From IMG/VR virus record IMGVR_UViG_3300048999_000192, positions 1-64,000 of that record: DNA of 64,000 nucleotides; one strand, 5' to 3'. Source of the stretch: a virus. Both the position numbers and the translations under genes were made by a program. Shown piece by piece: positions 3,616 to 61,727 of the stretch. Position 1 is the first letter of the stretch, and each line of letters starts with the position of its first letter. Below the pieces are notes generated by a model. The model saw only the letters and a list, made by a program, of their open reading frames with translations. It did no database searches and was not told the DNA's origin.

Positions 3616-3956
3616 GTGCCGCTCCCGTTGGGGTTCGGGGCACCGGGGAGGATGCCCTTGTTGACGTCGTCGACCAGCTTGGCCTTCTCGGCCCGCATGC
3701 CGGTCAGGGTCATCTGGATCTGCTTGTCGATCTCCTCCGGCCGGGGCAGCGGGTGGCCGAACATGATCGGGGCCATCATCCGCTCGTCCAGCGCCAGGCC
3801 ACGGATGGTCAGCAGGGCGACGAGGGAGACCGCCATCCCCTGCGGGGTCGGCAGGAGCTGCATCCAGCAGTCGTACTGGACGTCCTCGCCGAGGGAGTTG
3901 CGGGCGACGGCGTCCGCGACGACGGCGCGGGCACCGTCAGTGATCGTCGGCTGCAT
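3612..3956 (-). CDS. hypothetical protein
   Basis: AAGGA RBS, coupled to neighbours. Confidence 0.7.
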   Translation of the reverse strand: MQPTITDGARAVVADAVARNSLGEDVQYDCWMQLLPTPQGMAVSLVALLTIRGLALDERMMAPIMFGHPLPRPEEIDKQIQMTLTGMRAEKAKLVDDVNKGILPGAPNPNGSGT

Positions 3957-4191
3957 CGGATTCCTTCTTCCAGGATTGAATGGGCTGCGGGACCGCGAGG
4001 ATCTGGGCGTCCTCCTCGGTCGCCTCGCCCTTGATGACCCGGGCGAACCGGGAATAGGCGTCCATGACCGGAATCCACTTGTGGCACTGGTCGGACGTCT
4101 TGTTGGCGGCGGCCTCGGTGAGGACCGTCATGCCCTCGATCAGGGCCTGGTCGATCGCGTCGGCCTCGTAGCCGCCAGGGAGGGTTTTCAC
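3937..4191 (-). CDS. hypothetical protein
   Basis: GTGA overlap with helicase stop. Confidence 0.65.
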   Translation of the reverse strand: MKTLPGGYEADAIDQALIEGMTVLTEAAANKTSDQCHKWIPVMDAYSRFARVIKGEATEEDAQILAVPQPIQSWKKESDAADDH

Positions 4192-15770: not shown

Positions 15771-15823
15771 ATTTTAAAATGATTGCTCTCCAAGGATTCC
15801 TGGAGTAGCGTGGACCTCGCCAC
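15771..15823 (+). promoter_or_regulatory. phage promoter
   Basis: ATTTTAAAAT, TTGCTC-17 bp (TCCAAGGATTCCTGGAG)-TAGCGT, then GCCAC. Confidence 0.75.
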
Positions 15824-48653: not shown

Positions 48654-48809
48654 GTGGCGATCGTGCGCAAGGTGCGGGTCCGGGCACCGCGAGGCAAGGA
48701 GCCGTGTGCCGACTGCGCGGCCGACGGCTGCGAGACGTGCGACAAGACCGGCTTCCTCCCGGCCGGGTCGGCCCCGGCACGACGACGCTCCTGGAGGGCG
48801 GCTCGGTGA
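48654..48809 (+). CDS. small DnaJ-type Zn-finger-like protein
   Basis: Not in ORF track; GGGGAGG RBS; CADC...CETCDKTG; GTGA overlap with next gene. Confidence 0.55.
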   Translation: MAIVRKVRVRAPRGKEPCADCAADGCETCDKTGFLPAGSAPARRRSWRAAR

Positions 48810-51800
48810 GCGACTTCGACTTCTCCCACGAGGAGATCAACACCGGAGGGACGAAGTACCCGACGAGGGTGCATCTGCGCGCCCACCACCCGGACGGCTC
48901 GGACGCCGGGTCGATGCACTACTTCCCGCCCAAGCGCAAGGGCAGCCCCGTCACGGTGGACACCCTGCCTCACGGTGACGACCGCGCCCGGGGAGCCGGG
49001 TCGGCCTTGCTGGATGAGATGGAGCGCCGCCACCCGGGCTCCCGCGTCGTCTACATGGACGAGCTCCACGAGAAGAACAAGCCGAAGCCGGGCGATCCGA
49101 ACTTCAACGCCAACCGCGACTACGGCCTGCCGACCGACTGGGAGCACCACTTCCCCAAGCTCCCCGGCCAGATCCACCGGGGGATGGGCGTCCGGCTGGA
49201 CAAGTACACCGCCGGGGACATCAACAGCGGGGACATGCCCTCGGGCGACCAGGCCAAGATCCTGCGCGGCGCGATCGAGAACGGCGGCCCCGGCGGCATG
49301 CACTGGTCGGCGGACGAGTCCAAGTCCCACCAGTTCGCTCACCGGAACGTCATCGACCCCCGTACGGACATCCCCGTGGTGCTGCACGCCCGTACGCCAG
49401 GGCTCAAGGACGTCGAGACGCGTCCTGACGTGCTGCGGAACAAGGGCGTCTGGCCGCACGACCACATCTCCGGCGACGCTGAGGTGCCGATCCGCAAGAA
49501 GCGGCCCGTCCACATCACCGGGATCTCCTGGCTCCCCGACGCCGACCACCCGGAGGCGGACGAGCACGGGTGGGTGCACCACACCTTCGCCGAGCCGCTG
49601 GTGCACAACGCGTCCCAGGGCTTGGCTCCAAGGATTCTGGGGAATACACTGGGTGAAAGCCACGAAAGGGGCCGTAATGAGCACCGAGCAGGGCGGGGGA
49701 AGCCTCGTCATCGTGTCCAGCCGGGAGCTGGCGACGATTCTGGCCGAGCGGGAGAGCTCGGGGGAGACGCCGGTGACGTGGGAGCAGGTCAAGCAGCAGA
49801 ACGGCCTGTGACCTTCCACCCTCAGGCGGCCAAGGAGTTCGGCAAGCTCGACGGGCAGACCAAGCGCCAGGTCCAGAAGACGATCGACGCGCTGTCCACC
49901 GGCCAGCCGACCCAGACCCACTACCTGGACGCCCCGCTGAAGGGCTGGCAGGGCACCAAGGCCTCGCGCGGCCACCGGATCGTCCACAAGGACACCGACG
50001 ACGGGGGCCTGCACATCGGCTACGTCGGCCTGCACGACTACGAGAAGGCCGAGCGCCGCCTGGGTGCCCGCGAGCCCTTCGAGTTCGAGTACGCCCGCAA
50101 CACGATCCCGGCCCCAAAGATGCCGGGCGACGTGTACGGCCAGGACATCGAGCCCCACGGCCGGTATATGACCGTGCGCTCCCAGCCGGGCAACTACGTC
50201 GACAACGAGCGCATGAAGTGGGAGTTCGGCCAGCACCGCTTCGAGAACCCGCTGCACCTGGACGCCGAGGGCTGGAAGCAGCACCTCTCCGACATGCACG
50301 GCGGCAAGACCGGCCGGGAGCTCTCGCAGGCCGTACGGGACGCCGGGCACGACGGCATCGTCACGCATGAGACCTGGCGCGGCCAGCGCACGCCTGGCGA
50401 GATCGTCGACCTGACCGGCTTCAAGCGGCGCAGCAGGCTGGCGCGTACGGCGGCCGACGATGATGACGACTACCGCATGCAGCACCGGCCGCCGGATGCC
50501 GACTTCGGGGCTCCGCATCACGATCTGACCCAGATCCTGCCGGACGACGTCTACACCCACCCGCAGTACTACGACCCGAACGGTCAGGGCGGTGACTGGC
50601 ACGACCGGAAGACGTTCCAGGACTCTTACCACCAGATCCAGCGGACGCGGGACAAGCCGGAAGCTAAGGTCAAGATCTACCGATCCCTCCCGGCCGAGTA
50701 CGCCCATCAGGGCTTCCGTCCCGGCGACTGGGTGAGCACCTCTCGCGACTATGCGATCGGGCACGGCAAGCACCACGCCGACTCCAAGCACGACTGGCCG
50801 GTCATCTCCACCTCGGTACCGGCCAAGCACCTGCAGACCAGCGGTGACGACCTGCGCGAGTGGGGCTACACCGGCCCGCACAAGGAGTGGCCCGCCGTCT
50901 CGCACAAGGGCGGCTATCACCAGGAGATCCGCCAGCGTGCCGACGGCACCATCGCGCCGGTGAAGCGCCGTGCGCCCAAGGAGGCCGCCGACCGGGCGCT
51001 GTTCACCGAGAAGCAGCCGGAGGACATGCGCAACCAGGGCGGCACCGACTGGGACCGCGTTCACCCCACCCTGCCGCCGACTGTGCACCGGGGCGCAGGC
51101 TTCCTGCTCTCGCCCAAGGACCACGCCTACGTCCATGACGCCTCGATCCCGGCGGCCGACCGCGCGCACCACCTGATCGGCCTGATGAAGGGCAAGGCCT
51201 ACTCCGGCGGCATCGGCAAGCACTGGAGTACCGACCCGTGGGTGGCGCATCACTTCGCGGCCAATGAGGCCGGGCGCAACAGCGACGCCTACGAGACCGA
51301 AGCGCCGGACTACAAGTGGGGCACCGACGATGACGGTGACCCGAAGTGGCGGCCCGCCACGATGGTCATGCTGCACGCCAAGACCCCGGCTCGTGCCGAC
51401 CTGGACGAGACCCACCACGACGTCTGGGGACGCGGCGTCGACTACGAGACCCACCACGAGAAGGAAACGCCGGTCATCGCCGGGCGGCCGGTCCACGTCA
51501 CCGGCATGTCCTGGGGTACCGAGGATGATCCCGCGCCGGATGATGACGGCGAGCCCCAGACGCTCTGGCAGCACCACGAGGACGACTACGACGGCCCGGC
51601 GGACCCGCCGCAGCACGCCTACCCGCATCGCCACACCTTCCCTGGCGGGCAGGCCCACACCGCGACCTGGGAGGACGAGACGTACGCGGGCTGGGAGCCG
51701 CACCAGCGCGCGGTCTCTGAGGCCCAGGAGGCCGTACGGGCCGAGCACCCGTACCTGACCGCGCCGCTGCCGGACTCCATGAGCGAGCGGGACGAGGAGC

Positions 51801-54604
51801 TCCGCAAGGTCCTGCGCCACGGCGGCCACCCGCGCGCCGACGACGCGTACGTCCACATCCACCGCGACCCGAACCGGAGCAGCTCCAACTCCGGCATCAG
51901 CCGGGAGACCGGCGCGCCCATCGTGAGCCTGCACCCGAGCCGGGCCGATCGCGGCACCATCACGCACGAGGCCGCGCACATCCTGAACGACCACGACCAC
52001 GGCAGGCAGGTCAACGAGGAGGCCCCGGACCACTACGTCCACGGGATCGGCTTCGCCCAGCACTACGCCCGCATGCTGCAGCCGTACGGGCCCCGCACGA
52101 CGCCGGGCGGCAACTACAAGCCCGGCGCGGGCGACCTGTTCCTGAACACCTACTACCGCTCGCTGGCCAAGCAGAACCGGGGCTTCGCCCACACCGCCGC
52201 CCGCGCCCTCCCGACCGACCGGATCTTCGGGCCGACGTACGGCCTGGACCATCGGCTGTTCAACGGCGAGGTGATCCGGCCGGAGGTGCGCAAGGCGGTC
52301 ATGGACCGGCTGGACGAGGTCTTCCGGGTGACCTCGGGCCTGCTCGACTGGTCCTCCTACATGCGCGTCTACCTGGCGGGCTCGGAGGCGAGCGAGTGGA
52401 CCAGCCCGACGCTGGAGGGCAACAACGACTTCGACACCTTGATCGGCGTCGACTACGACCAGGCGCGGGCGCACCGTGACGACAACTTCCTGACCATGAC
52501 CGACGGGGAGATCGACGACGTCCTGAACGACATCCTGCGCCAGTTCTACAACGACGAGGACTGGCAGGCCCCGTTCGGCGGCGTCTGGCACCTGACCGGC
52601 TACGTCAACCCGGACGCCTACGACATCCGGGACATCAAGCCGTACGCCGCCTATGACCTCTCGGACAGCCGCTGGGCAGTCAAGCCACCGCACCTGCCCT
52701 CCTGGGGCCCGGAGAGCTTCCCTGAGGGCCCCGCGCTCTGGCATGAGGCCTCGGCCGTCGCCGACTACATCGAGTCCATCCTGGAGCTCCCAGAGCCGTA
52801 CAGGACCCAGCAGGGCGGGGCGCTGTACGACCACCTGCACTCCGACCGGCACCGGGCGTTCGGGCCGAACGGCGAGGGCTGGTACGACCCGGGCAACGTC
52901 ATCGAGAAGTACCTGGACCAGCTCGGTCTGTGGGCCAAGCTCCTGCACCTGAAGAAGAACGCCGAGCACGGGGCCTACGACCCCGGTGAGCAGCCGATGC
53001 TGGAGGCGACGGCGCTGAGGGTCTATCACGGCACGTCGGCGGAGAACGCGGCCAAGATCAAGCACGAGGGCCTGACCTCACCGGTCTACGACGAGACCCA
53101 CAACACCCTGTCCGAGAGCCGGAGCCAGGCCCTGGAGCTGGCCCGGCGCCGGGGGCGTCAGGACCCGGCGGTCGTGGCCTTCGACGTGCCGGACGAGGCC
53201 GTCGGTGAGCACCTGCACCCGCCGTACGAGTACTGGGGTGGCAGCGGGGTGGCCAACACCTACGCCCTGCGCAAGCCGCTCCCGCCGCACTTCGTGGCCA
53301 CGGCCAAGGTGGCCAACTCCGACGGCGACGACTGGATGGAGTGCGACCAGGGGCACGAGCACTGGGGCACCAACGGGGCGGCCGGTCTGCTCCTCCGCCA
53401 CCACGACCCCGAGGACGGCAAGACCAGGTACCTGCTGCAGAAGCGCTCCCCGTGGGTCGACCACCCCGACACCTGGGGGATCCCCGGCGGCGCGCTCGGC
53501 CACGGGGAGCACCCGCTGAAGGGCGCGTTCCGCGAGGGGATCGAGGAGCTCGGCACCCTGCCGCCGGGCGTCCGCCGGAGCCACACCACCACCGACGACC
53601 ACGGCGGCTGGGCCTATCACACGGTGGTCGCCGACAGCCCGGAGCGCTTCGAACCCGGCGGCGGCCAGGACGACCATGAGAGCGACGGGCACGGCTGGTT
53701 CACGCACGGGGAGATGCAGGACCTGCCGCTGCACCCCGGCTTCGCCAAGAGCTGGGACCGCGTCCGCACGAGCCACCCGGGCAACAGCACGGTGCATGCG
53801 GCCAGCCACCACTGGATCGCCAACGAGCACAACCTGCGGGGGCCGGGGGAGCTCGAAGACGAGGACGAGGCCCCGGCGTACTTCCATGGTGACCGGGAGA
53901 GGCGCAACGGCCACTTCGATCGGGCCTGGGACCACCTGCGGCCGGAGCAGCACGAGAACATCCGGAAGAACCTGAAGGCGCTGTCCGCCAAGAAGATGAT
54001 CGTCGGCACCAACCATGCCGCCGAGATCTTCGACCACGGGCAGATGAAGACCCTGCACGAATACGATCCCCACGAGCGGACGGCGGGCTACCTCTTCGAC
54101 CGTAAGGCGCTGGAGCGCCACGTCCTCGGCGTGCCGGAGAGCACCAACCCCGACCAGCAGCCGATCTACGGGTCGATGCACGATGATCCGGTCGAGAACA
54201 ACTACGGCCGCTACAAGCTGGAGCTCAAGCCGCATGTGCGCGCCCGCGCCGGTGTCACCATGGGGGACTCGCTCAACGAGAAGCTCCGGGGTTACCACAT
54301 CGACCATGTGCCGCACCTCAGCCATGCGGAGATGAGGGAGATGGTCGAGCCCACCGAGCTGATCAACCTGGCCGAGAACGAGAAGCCCAAGTCCTACATG
54401 GAATTCCAGGTCCACGGCGGGATCGGGGTCCATGACATCGCGAAGCTGCACGTCCATGAGGATCACGGCAGGCCGCTGACAGAGAAGGATCACCAGGTGA
54501 TGGACAAGGCCCGCGATGCGGGGGTCGAGGTGGTCCACCACAAGCCGGACCCGAACTTCGGCCTGACGGATGATCAGGTCGCGACGCTGAGGGGGCACCG
54601 ATGA
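48806..54604 (+). CDS. giant His-rich polyvalent protein: GNAT-like, several ADP-ribosyltransferase-like modules, RelE-like, HExxH zincin, Pol-beta nucleotidyltransferase, Nudix, DUF3626-like
   Basis: RARGAGSALL; HRG..HWS..E (x2); IYRS..GDWVST..EWG; THEAAH; LAGSEAS..NDFD; VYHGTS; GGALGHGEHPLKGAFREGIEELG; PIYG..YG..GDS..YMEFQVHGG. Confidence 0.8.
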   Translation: MSDFDFSHEEINTGGTKYPTRVHLRAHHPDGSDAGSMHYFPPKRKGSPVTVDTLPHGDDRARGAGSALLDEMERRHPGSRVVYMDELHEKNKPKPGDPNFNANRDYGLPTDWEHHFPKLPGQIHRGMGVRLDKYTAGDINSGDMPSGDQAKILRGAIENGGPGGMHWSADESKSHQFAHRNVIDPRTDIPVVLHARTPGLKDVETRPDVLRNKGVWPHDHISGDAEVPIRKKRPVHITGISWLPDADHPEADEHGWVHHTFAEPLVHNASQGLAPRILGNTLGESHERGRNEHRAGRGKPRHRVQPGAGDDSGRAGELGGDAGDVGAGQAAERPVTFHPQAAKEFGKLDGQTKRQVQKTIDALSTGQPTQTHYLDAPLKGWQGTKASRGHRIVHKDTDDGGLHIGYVGLHDYEKAERRLGAREPFEFEYARNTIPAPKMPGDVYGQDIEPHGRYMTVRSQPGNYVDNERMKWEFGQHRFENPLHLDAEGWKQHLSDMHGGKTGRELSQAVRDAGHDGIVTHETWRGQRTPGEIVDLTGFKRRSRLARTAADDDDDYRMQHRPPDADFGAPHHDLTQILPDDVYTHPQYYDPNGQGGDWHDRKTFQDSYHQIQRTRDKPEAKVKIYRSLPAEYAHQGFRPGDWVSTSRDYAIGHGKHHADSKHDWPVISTSVPAKHLQTSGDDLREWGYTGPHKEWPAVSHKGGYHQEIRQRADGTIAPVKRRAPKEAADRALFTEKQPEDMRNQGGTDWDRVHPTLPPTVHRGAGFLLSPKDHAYVHDASIPAADRAHHLIGLMKGKAYSGGIGKHWSTDPWVAHHFAANEAGRNSDAYETEAPDYKWGTDDDGDPKWRPATMVMLHAKTPARADLDETHHDVWGRGVDYETHHEKETPVIAGRPVHVTGMSWGTEDDPAPDDDGEPQTLWQHHEDDYDGPADPPQHAYPHRHTFPGGQAHTATWEDETYAGWEPHQRAVSEAQEAVRAEHPYLTAPLPDSMSERDEELRKVLRHGGHPRADDAYVHIHRDPNRSSSNSGISRETGAPIVSLHPSRADRGTITHEAAHILNDHDHGRQVNEEAPDHYVHGIGFAQHYARMLQPYGPRTTPGGNYKPGAGDLFLNTYYRSLAKQNRGFAHTAARALPTDRIFGPTYGLDHRLFNGEVIRPEVRKAVMDRLDEVFRVTSGLLDWSSYMRVYLAGSEASEWTSPTLEGNNDFDTLIGVDYDQARAHRDDNFLTMTDGEIDDVLNDILRQFYNDEDWQAPFGGVWHLTGYVNPDAYDIRDIKPYAAYDLSDSRWAVKPPHLPSWGPESFPEGPALWHEASAVADYIESILELPEPYRTQQGGALYDHLHSDRHRAFGPNGEGWYDPGNVIEKYLDQLGLWAKLLHLKKNAEHGAYDPGEQPMLEATALRVYHGTSAENAAKIKHEGLTSPVYDETHNTLSESRSQALELARRRGRQDPAVVAFDVPDEAVGEHLHPPYEYWGGSGVANTYALRKPLPPHFVATAKVANSDGDDWMECDQGHEHWGTNGAAGLLLRHHDPEDGKTRYLLQKRSPWVDHPDTWGIPGGALGHGEHPLKGAFREGIEELGTLPPGVRRSHTTTDDHGGWAYHTVVADSPERFEPGGGQDDHESDGHGWFTHGEMQDLPLHPGFAKSWDRVRTSHPGNSTVHAASHHWIANEHNLRGPGELEDEDEAPAYFHGDRERRNGHFDRAWDHLRPEQHENIRKNLKALSAKKMIVGTNHAAEIFDHGQMKTLHEYDPHERTAGYLFDRKALERHVLGVPESTNPDQQPIYGSMHDDPVENNYGRYKLELKPHVRARAGVTMGDSLNEKLRGYHIDHVPHLSHAEMREMVEPTELINLAENEKPKSYMEFQVHGGIGVHDIAKLHVHEDHGRPLTEKDHQVMDKARDAGVEVVHHKPDPNFGLTDDQVATLRGHR
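49622..49663 (+). promoter_or_regulatory. internal phage promoter inside the giant ORF
   Basis: TTGGCT-17 bp (CCAAGGATTCTGGGGAA)-TACACT, then GCCAC as in other copies. Confidence 0.75.
49677..49811 (+). CDS. 44-aa antitoxin-like protein nested out of frame in the giant ORF
   Basis: AAGGGG RBS; ends ETPVTWEQVKQQNGL like RelB/ParD-type antitoxin C-termini; its TGA overlaps the GTG of the RelE-like domain. Confidence 0.65.
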   Translation: MSTEQGGGSLVIVSSRELATILAERESSGETPVTWEQVKQQNGL

Positions 54605-56028
54605 GGATGGATCTCGGCGGCGGCCGGTTCGCTGACGTCCCGGACGGGGCCAGCCATCGCAGCCTGATCAAGGTGATCAGCCCGGACGGCGTCCACGAGG
54701 TGTCCTGGGGCGGTCTGCAGGGCCTGTCCAACGGGGAGCTACCCGCCCGCCGGACGCCCAAGACGGCCGACTACCACCTGCAGCACCGGGCGCCGGACGA
54801 GGAGTCCGGCAAGCCCCTGCACCACTACGAGGGCGGCGACGGGGATGAGCACGTCGACATCTACCGGGCCGTCCCTCACGATGTCCGGCACATCGAGCAC
54901 GACTCGTGGATCACCACCAACCCCGAGTACGCCCACCAGCACGCCCAGCAGTACGACGGGTCGGAATCCTGGCCGGTGCTGCATGCCAGCGTGCCCAAGA
55001 AGCACCTGTACTGGGACGAGAACGACCCGAATGAGCACGGCTACCAGGGGCCGGACATTCCCGAGGCCGACGTGCACGACGAGGAACACGGCGTCATCTC
55101 ACGGGACGAGCACGATGAGGCGCACCCGCAGCCGAGCGAGGAGGAGGCCGAGCGCGGCGGAGAGCACTTCCACGGCACCGCCGTGCACCTGCCACCGAGG
55201 GCGCACCAGATCGTCCACAACCCGAAGAAGCCCATGGACGTACGGGCGCGCGTGCTACTGGGTCACCTGCCCAAGGAGGTCCAGCACAACTCCGGGGGCC
55301 CGTGGGAAGAGGACGCCGACGACGCCGAGCTGGAGTCGATGAGCCAGGCCGACGACATGGGCCCGCACCCTGAGCACGGCACCCCACCGACGCAGGTCGT
55401 GGTGCACGGCAGTCCGTACGGCAGCAAACCGCACGGCATCTCCTGGGCGGACTCGGCCAAGGAGCCGCTGGTCTTCCACCGCGACTACGCGCACCACACG
55501 TTCGGCGGCAAGACGGCCAAGACTGCGGTGGACGCCACTGGCTCGATGATGGTCGCCTTCGTCCCGCCGAAGAACGTGATCGACCACCTCGTGCAGGAGG
55601 GCGGCGAGACGGCCGACGAGCTCCACATCACCCTGCTCTACCTGGGCAAGGAGTCGGCGTTCACGCCCAAGCAGGTCGCCCAGCTCCCCACCCTGGTGAG
55701 CCAGTGGGCCAAGGGCCAGCACCCGATGCAGGCCAACACCCAGGGTGCGGGCACGTTCATCAGCAAGGACAACCACAAGAACAGCCACGTCATGTGGGCC
55801 TCGGTGAACATCCCCGGGGTGACGCGGGCCCACGACGGCCTGGTGGACTTCCTGCGCGGCCACGGCCTGACAATCAAGGAGGATTTCGGGTACATCCCGC
55901 ATATAACCCTGAAGTATGACAAGTATCACGTCCGGTTCCTGCCCAAGGTCGAGCCCATGACCTGGGACATCACGCAGGTCTGGTTCTGCCGGGGCGATGA
56001 GTGGACACCGTACGTGCTAGGACGTTGA
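54601..56028 (+). CDS. second polyvalent protein: ART-like modules plus 2H phosphoesterase
   Basis: Modules paralogous to the giant protein; ELHITL and IPHITL HxT motifs. Confidence 0.8.
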   Translation: MRMDLGGGRFADVPDGASHRSLIKVISPDGVHEVSWGGLQGLSNGELPARRTPKTADYHLQHRAPDEESGKPLHHYEGGDGDEHVDIYRAVPHDVRHIEHDSWITTNPEYAHQHAQQYDGSESWPVLHASVPKKHLYWDENDPNEHGYQGPDIPEADVHDEEHGVISRDEHDEAHPQPSEEEAERGGEHFHGTAVHLPPRAHQIVHNPKKPMDVRARVLLGHLPKEVQHNSGGPWEEDADDAELESMSQADDMGPHPEHGTPPTQVVVHGSPYGSKPHGISWADSAKEPLVFHRDYAHHTFGGKTAKTAVDATGSMMVAFVPPKNVIDHLVQEGGETADELHITLLYLGKESAFTPKQVAQLPTLVSQWAKGQHPMQANTQGAGTFISKDNHKNSHVMWASVNIPGVTRAHDGLVDFLRGHGLTIKEDFGYIPHITLKYDKYHVRFLPKVEPMTWDITQVWFCRGDEWTPYVLGR

Positions 56029-57111: not shown

Positions 57112-57182
57112 ATCATTTTAAAATGATGGCTGGAATCGCTTCCCTCCCCAGAATCCTTGGAGTAGAGTGGCGTTATCGCCAC
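57112..57182 (+). promoter_or_regulatory. phage promoter, fullest copy
   Basis: ATCATTTTAAAATGAT palindrome; TTCCCT-17 bp-TAGAGT; GTGGCGTTATCGCCAC. Confidence 0.8.
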
Positions 57183-61620: not shown

Positions 61621-61727
61621 TGAGACCCGACCGCCCCGGAGCGCGGTCGGGTCTCAATCATTTTAAAATCATTGCTGAAAGTGCTTCCCTCCCTAGAATC
61701 CTTGGAGTAGAGTGGCCTTATCGCCAC
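61621..61727 (+). promoter_or_regulatory. terminator hairpin plus phage promoter
   Basis: TGAGACCCGACCGC/GCGGTCGGGTCTCA; ATCATTTTAAAAT; TTCCCT-17 bp-TAGAGT; GTGGCCTTATCGCCAC. Confidence 0.8.

Follow-up and report, generated by a model that had tools for sequence, protein, structure and literature searches.

How can a phage gene encode a toxin-like domain and, in the same nucleotides, a candidate antidote to that domain? This question is raised by a locus in virus record IMGVR_UViG_3300048999_000192 of IMG/VR, of which we analysed positions 1 to 64,000 (hereafter, the window). Over positions 48704–54604, the second reading frame of this DNA is free of stop codons for 1,966 codons and appears to encode a giant multidomain effector protein. 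Nested inside it, and in another frame, is a 44-codon open reading frame (ORF) with a promoter and a ribosome-binding site ahead of it, which ends at the boundary of a domain resembling the RelE and YoeB toxins. We consider it probable that this arrangement represents a type II toxin–antitoxin (TA) module overprinted as a mobile cassette within a polyvalent effector gene, with the small protein serving as the putative antidote. The features on which the argument depends are as follows.

48806–54604, + strand: giant polyvalent effector ORF (the long frame), recognized by its open frame, translation, GC content at third codon positions (GC3), domain matches and start context
48806–49619, + strand: N-terminal module of the giant protein; its last residues are ...HNASQ, and the long frame runs on without a stop
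49622–49650, + strand: internal promoter (-35 TTGGCT at 49622–49627, 17-nt spacer, -10 TACACT at 49645–49650)
49665–49671, + strand: Shine–Dalgarno (SD)-like sequence AAAGGGG, 5 nt before the ATG at 49677
49677–49811, + strand: nested antitoxin-like ORF of 44 codons in the +1 frame, from ATG 49677 to TGA 49809–49811
49688–49708, + strand: peptide motif AGRGKPR, read in the long frame where it shares nucleotides with the 5′ portion of the small ORF
49808–50083, + strand: YoeB/RelE-fold toxin-like domain of the long frame, recognized by an AlphaFold2 (AF2) model, structure alignment and a YoeB profile match

A first-pass annotation made from the letters of the DNA had proposed the promoter, the ribosome-binding site, the 44-codon ORF, its GTGA overlap with the toxin-like domain and the open long frame, and each was found at the coordinates listed above. 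Specifically, the TGA of the nested ORF overlaps (GTGA, 49808–49811) the long-frame GTG at 49808. The long frame has a GC3 of 0.85–1.0 throughout the giant ORF in a sliding plot, save for positions 49620–49800. There it drops from about 0.95 to about 0.5 and the GC3 of the nested frame reaches 0.95; across the whole nested ORF, GC content by codon position is 0.64/0.48/0.95. This reciprocal switch in GC3 therefore suggests that the nested ORF is more than a chance opening.

Searches of viral and metagenome contigs with a single sequence or a four-sequence alignment returned zero to one locus, and a DNA pattern for the peptide TKASRGHRI returned four metagenome loci and none in viral contigs. 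In total, 16 distinct cassettes with DNA underlie the cassette counts given below, and 15 underlie the GC3 and promoter counts. At the protein level, 88 giant proteins match residues 34–640 of the giant protein, and these relatives combine GNAT, NUDIX, ART-PolyVal, Arr-ms, 2H and LPD domains. With this mix of effector domains and its shuffling from one relative to another, they fit the description of polyvalent proteins given by Iyer et al. (2017; PMC5512222). The position of the cassette, or of its RelE-like domain, varies among them from residue 1 to about residue 2042.

The nested ORF recurs with the cassette. All 16 cassettes contain a +1-frame ORF of 42–63 codons that ends at the domain boundary, and in 13 of them the stop codon falls 1 nt into the first codon of the RelE-like domain. 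A GGAGG-type site lies 4–8 nt 5′ of the small-ORF ATG in approximately 14 of the 16. In every one of the 15 cassettes measured, GC content at the three codon positions of the small ORF is about 0.7/0.43/0.9, and long-frame GC3 over the same span is 0.37–0.5 in 14 of them (0.68 in L007); in the flanking long frame it is mostly near 0.9 (range 0.68–1.0). Taken together, the GC3 pattern, the SD and ATG, the integrity of the ORF and the homology described below support the view that the small ORF is a real, conserved and separately initiated gene. Entry of long-frame ribosomes into the small ORF by +1 frameshifting was considered and rejected, because no slippery or stop context is present and the ORF has an SD and ATG of its own. 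The two most distant cassettes, of the AGKGKPRRDAPDV type (L007, positions 3861–4001, and L018, approximately 2190–2353), also carry a +1 ORF that ends exactly at the domain boundary (CTAG). Their small ORFs are highly diverged and Arg-rich, and may represent a decaying or re-purposed antitoxin.

The first-pass annotation had called the small protein an antitoxin, and this proposal holds in part. A profile built from 14 of the small ORFs retrieves full-length Phd/YefM antitoxins (PF02604) whose last 20–29 residues are nearly identical to the phage sequences, and hhalign assigns a probability of 97.5% to the match with P0165 (E = 9e-12) and 96.8% to that with P0168. The same profile matches an HTH_17 protein with the same tail, and small ORFs of the relatives give weak matches to RelB-like and TIGR02574 models. 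The homology spans only the end of the antitoxin, as the 44-residue product aligns solely to residues 57–85 of the 85-residue P0165. Neither Pfam nor the span of the hhalign match reveals a Phd/YefM DNA-binding and dimerization domain in the small ORF, whose N-terminal half is poorly conserved. The conserved gene and its antitoxin-like tail thus stand. Because the tail is homologous and the Phd/YefM domain is lacking, the small ORF appears to encode only the putative toxin-binding tail of a Phd/YefM-type antitoxin.

The domain that follows the nested ORF had been described as RelE/ParE-like, and this was borne out by structure rather than by Pfam. An AF2 model computed from a 15-sequence alignment has a predicted local distance difference test (pLDDT) score of 86.5, and replaces an earlier model from four sequences that scored 65. 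When used in a VIA structure search, the model aligned with the YoeB/ParE toxin 6n90 at Z = 12.0 (root-mean-square deviation 1.5 Å over 77 residues). It also aligned with Escherichia coli YoeB (2a6r; Z = 11.7), RelK (Z = 11.3), ribosome-bound RelE (Z = 9.4) and YafQ. All of the top 50 entries were toxins of the RelE/ParE superfamily (BECR fold) or a RelE-fold effector domain (Cami1). The domain is thus predicted to adopt the compact beta-alpha-alpha-beta-beta-beta(-alpha) BECR-type fold of the RelE/ParE superfamily. Profile comparisons agree with the model: a profile of 15 relatives finds YoeB among Protein Data Bank entries (E = 1.3e-3), and hhalign gives a probability of 90% for the match to canonical ParE_toxin proteins.

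Among the 15 domain sequences H38, H76 and Y78 are invariant and R57 is nearly so. In the hidden Markov model alignment to the YoeB chain, H38, R57 and H76 lie opposite a Glu, an Arg and the C-terminal His, and Y78 lies beyond the printed alignment. We take H38, R57, H76 and Y78 to correspond to the catalytic residues E46, R65, H83 and Y84 of E. coli YoeB, with Glu replaced by His in the phage domain. An exhaustive HMMER search with the domain found only 89 representative clusters, nearly all of them within large proteins. Five proteins (P0041, P0117, P0123, P0124 and P0130) carry a tandem pair of RelE-like domains in which one member is divergent (...GGHQVVHR...GYAGHN...).

A toxin-like domain preceded by a small gene could simply mark two adjacent genes, and the long frame across the small ORF is the place where this can be judged. 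A stop codon in the long frame of relatives, which had been named in advance as the observation that would separate two genes, was absent: the frame is uninterrupted across the cassette, with at least 95 codons open upstream, in 16 of 16 cases. By comparison, an upstream opening of 95 codons or more occurs in the toxin frame of 4 of 45 homologous bacterial operons (9%), and one of at least 60 codons in 20%. When only the span of the small ORF is considered, synonymous resampling gives each cassette a 43–86% chance of an open long frame, and the joint probability is about 0.001. The first codon of the RelE-like domain is GTG in 5 of the 16 cassettes and GTA, GTC or CTA in the other 11. Because this codon cannot serve as a start in those 11, the domain, which is under selection, would there be made only by read-through.

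The linker between the N-terminal module and the RelE-like domain provides a further argument. Approximately 40 codons before the domain, the long frame encodes the motif AGRGKPR, whose codons are invariant at positions 1 and 2 and use all four bases at position 3. Over these codons, the ratio of nonsynonymous to synonymous differences per site (pN/pS) is 0.074 when they are read in the long frame, as against 2.3 in the small frame. Furthermore, the motif occurs 65 times in 127 proteins, always 25–70 residues before a RelE-like domain and never elsewhere. The open frame in all 16 cassettes, the non-start codons and the selection on AGRGKPR and its exclusive placement together indicate that read-through of the long frame is real and that the region codes in two frames, in agreement with the long isoform proposed at the outset. 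The overlap appears to be partitioned, with the 5′ half constrained by the long frame and the 3′ half carrying the antitoxin tail.

The motif itself is basic and AT-hook-like and is more conserved than the RelE-like domain that it precedes; it may act as a processing site, as an RNA or DNA contact or in cis-regulation. We rejected a role as a generic inter-domain cleavage site, because AGRGKPR is found nowhere else in 164,510 residues.

A second isoform starting at 49808 and headed by the toxin domain, which had also been proposed, fared less well, because the non-start codons in 11 of the 16 cassettes leave no general place for it. The nearest relatives, L002 and L003, are instructive in this respect. 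In both, the JGI gene call starts at the GTG of the RelE-like domain, and an SD and ATG lie upstream of the cassette in an ATGA overlap with the stop of a conserved CxxC-containing ORF. This upstream site is positionally homologous to the start at 48806 in the window and is the likelier start. Because of the coupled SD and ATG, the linker is probably translated in L002 and L003 as well. An isoform from GTG 49808 is possible in the phage studied here, but it is neither conserved nor required.

The promoter ahead of the nested ORF is a copy of a phage-specific promoter family and more than a lone consensus match, as the first-pass annotation had supposed. The family pattern TTGNCTCCAAGGATTCTTGG has six matches in the window with no more than three mismatches, versus 0.02 expected. 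Other copies, all on the + strand, are located at 15783, 16675, 23752, 44348, 56025 and 63943. The copies have in common the spacer CTCCAAGGATTCTTGG and a GCCACGAA leader, and the leader motif follows the internal promoter at 49659–49666. With a score of 8 of 12 against the E. coli consensus, the site at 49622 is not flagged by a generic sigma-70 scan; the phage-specific motif was used instead.

Among the relatives, 8 of 15 cassettes have the pattern TTGNNN-N16-18-TANNNT within 110 nt 5′ of the small ORF, as compared with a single match in 71,878 nt of giant-ORF background outside the cassettes. The TTG of the -35 element and the initial T of the -10 element are supplied by codons that these genomes seldom use (TTG for Leu, and AAT, AGT and GAT instead of the C-ending forms). 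This use of rare codons therefore points to selection on the DNA itself. We considered whether ILGNTLGE and YFGGG might be conserved as peptides instead of as promoter and SD. Because what is conserved is the use of rare codons (TTG and those ending in T) together with GGAGG plus ATG, we discarded peptide conservation as the main cause.

The promoter family as a whole can be summarized by the consensus TTGaCT, spacer CCAAGGATTCTTGG, TAc..T and GCCACGAA leader. It has a further + strand member at 61672, and inverted partial copies are present at 57147–57166 and 61692–61711.

Where might such a cassette come from? A tail-matching antitoxin is encoded at 77 actinobacterial loci, and in 44 of these the ORF directly downstream resembles the phage RelE-like profile, if weakly. 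Three of the downstream ORFs were tested by Pfam and proved to be canonical ParE_toxin genes. These matches trace the cassette back to an ordinary TA operon of actinobacteria. Like the actinobacterial Phd/YefM–ParE/RelE operons (L019–L095; P0165 and P0168), the phage cassette has an upstream antitoxin-like gene with the tail ...PVPWEQVK..LGL, an overlap of a few bases with the start of the toxin and a toxin of the RelE/ParE fold. In contrast to these operons, the phage antitoxin lacks the Phd/YefM DNA-binding and dimerization domain, and the phage toxin is internal to a protein of 1,900 residues rather than a protein of 90, with a frame that is open upstream and fused to other modules. The cassette also has a phage promoter in place of an autoregulated operator, and its toxin is too diverged for Pfam. 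Thus, of the usual type II layout, the small upstream gene and the overlap are present, and the toxin as a separate small protein is not. In the actinobacterial operons the toxin frame, followed back beyond the toxin start and thus off the frame of the antitoxin, also reads ...VGAGQ..PR, a feature common to the phage cassette.

Small genes lying out of frame within larger ones are well established, as exemplified by comS inside srfAB of Bacillus subtilis and Rz1 inside Rz of phage lambda. To our knowledge, neither has any relation to toxin–antitoxin systems, nor a dedicated internal promoter inside a phage effector gene. The nested gene described here differs from both in that it is predicted to be functionally tied to the next domain of its host ORF.

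Two families of proteins offer further comparisons. The polyvalent proteins of phages and conjugative elements, which include members with RNase domains of the PBECR type (Iyer et al., 2017; PMC5512222), resemble the giant protein in that they combine many unrelated effector domains and shuffle their modules among relatives. That study described neither nested genes nor an antitoxin or immunity gene accompanying the RNase domains. On our reading of its description, the BECR domain found here is of the classical YoeB/RelE TA type and does not belong to the PBECR1–6 families. In-frame YefM–YoeB fusions have been listed (Gerdes, 2025; PMC11980606); the same work left aside multidomain RelE proteins for which no antitoxin could be identified. 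As in these fusions, a YoeB-type toxin and its antitoxin would occupy one gene-sized unit, but the fusions are one polypeptide in one frame, whereas the antitoxin here would be a separate polypeptide read from another frame. In the literature searched, we found no account of an antitoxin gene nested in this way, whether within polyvalent proteins or in any other setting.

These observations can be combined in a mechanism. Ribosomes on the giant ORF would read through a flexible linker that is rich in Gly, Ala and Arg and includes AGRGKPR, and would make the YoeB/RelE-fold toxin part as one domain within the giant protein. Initiation at the internal ATG would yield the small protein, the putative antidote, from read-through transcripts or from transcripts of its own promoter. 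The small protein would then neutralize the RelE-like domain within the producing cell. Nesting of its gene would make the antitoxin travel with the toxin domain whenever polyvalent modules recombine. The layout of the locus, the fold, the kinship of the tail to antitoxins, selection in both frames and the conservation of promoter and SD come from the observations above; the binding, the RNase activity and the timing of expression on which this scheme draws are our inference.

Several points weigh against this interpretation. The 16 cassettes are related phylogenetically, and the counts given above therefore overstate their independence. A canonical promoter was seen in only the 8 of 15 cassettes noted above. 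Pfam assigns no family to the small ORF or to the RelE-like domain (none at E ≤ 1), and the RelE-like matches to PHROG 1213 (E = 0.0015) and NCBIfam RelE_StbE (E = 0.012) are both below the cut-off. Over the antitoxin tail, Nei–Gojobori pN/pS is 1.05 versus 1.69, values that do not clearly favour the small frame. Finally, the neighbouring genes, whose functions are unassigned, do not establish packaging of the giant protein; the 699-residue protein encoded upstream is only a weak terminase match.

There is a bolder version of the proposal, which we regard as tentative and rather doubtful. In this version the cassette is a self-immunized portable toxin module, in which an injected RelE/YoeB domain would halt host translation and the nested antitoxin, made later, would serve as a timer. 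The giant protein would be packaged without its antidote, such that the toxin would act at time zero in the new cell, and host RNA polymerase would transcribe the antitoxin gene from the early-type promoter on the incoming genome. AGRGKPR would act in processing or RNA binding as an element particular to the cassette, and dual coding would keep toxin and antidote inseparable. Packaging of the giant protein and delivery of an unguarded toxin would follow only by analogy with the polyvalent-protein paradigm.

It is unlikely that the small protein is real but non-classical in function, acting as a chaperone, a packaging or processing factor or a regulator, with the RelE fold serving as a ribosome- or RNA-binding module. 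A small protein without a DNA-binding domain would suit such roles, and inactive BECR domains exist, for example in MuF of phage Mu (Iyer et al., 2017; PMC5512222). However, the tail of the small protein is common to the antitoxins of ParE/RelE-type operons, and the two coding regions are laid out as in a type II TA module. In addition, the residues of the domain that align with what we take to be the catalytic Glu, Arg and His of YoeB, and the Tyr two positions after the His, are invariant or nearly so.

Still more improbable, in our judgement, is that the small ORF is a decaying relic, untranslated or non-functional, beside a RelE-like domain that is inactive or is rendered harmless in some other way, such as by a polyprotein context. 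The missing Phd/YefM domain would fit a relic, as would the poorly conserved N-terminal half, where selection on the long frame overrides, the pN/pS near 1 over the tail and the strong divergence of the small ORFs in L007 and L018. A relic would have gained stop codons and lost its SD, and is disfavoured because the ORF is instead intact with SD and ATG in approximately 14 of 16 diverged cassettes. Furthermore, coding-type GC3 is kept in all 15 cassettes measured, and the tail is almost identical to those of full-length antitoxins.

The view that these are two separate genes, in which the open frame at 49616–49807 is a by-product of high GC content after loss of an upstream stop and only a product from GTG 49808 matters, can draw on the per-cassette resampling chances, the JGI calls in L002 and L003 and the GTG of the window itself, but is highly improbable given the excess of open frames over those of bacterial operons at either length threshold, the textbook purifying selection on AGRGKPR, the 11 domains without a start codon of their own and the coupled SD and ATG upstream of the L002 and L003 cassettes.

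If the cassette is an overprinted TA module and its small protein neutralizes the RelE-like domain, then the phage could carry a translation poison without harming its own late protein synthesis. The arrangement would also suggest a simple evolutionary route, in which a whole TA operon is swallowed in frame by a larger gene. Because the high-GC toxin frame is often open upstream of a TA operon, in-frame capture of this kind is possible. The locus would be a clean natural case of partitioned dual coding and a test bed for the detection of overlapping genes. Gene callers annotate these loci as a single ORF and overlook the nested gene; other polyvalent or polymorphic toxin genes may therefore conceal similar immunity genes.

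The 64-kb window is the first part of a 155,098-bp virus record, with a GC content of 67%, and its gene products include PolIII-alpha, DnaB, a primase, RecA and a weakly terminase-like protein. Searches by blastn and tblastn of phage and plasmid collections gave no match for the cassette or the N-terminal module; the sole match was 257 nt shared with Gordonia phages, further downstream. Two relatives are found in Streptomyces assemblies and point to Streptomyces-like actinobacteria as the host.

The likely start of the giant ORF is the GTG at 48806, which is preceded by GGAGGG and overlaps (GTGA) the stop of an upstream 51-aa ORF. Besides the RelE-fold domain, the giant protein has NUDIX and ParB-C-like modules, among others, in Pfam and PHROG scans, and an HExxH motif was sighted by eye only. 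The N-terminal module has counterparts of 45–71% identity in approximately 70 relatives, where it is mostly N-terminal as well, and is not present in L002 and L003.

Several further observations concern these flanking regions. The N-terminal module is present in two or three copies in many relatives. In the giant protein (P0001) itself, residues of approximately 144–293 and 781–958 are copies of one module with 33% identity, encoded at about 49130–49580 and 51040–51575 of the window. The 51-aa ORF (48654–48809), whose TGA overlaps the giant-ORF GTG, has two CxxC pairs and is zinc-ribbon-like; its homologue in L002 and L003 is coupled through ATGA to the ATG upstream of the cassette. Faint intein and LAGLIDADG signatures were seen in or beside the polyvalent genes of L013 and L017. 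The next gene in the window (54601–56028) overlaps the end of the giant ORF and encodes another polyvalent protein of smaller size, in which a 2H/LigT phosphoesterase module accompanies one that is ParB-C-like.

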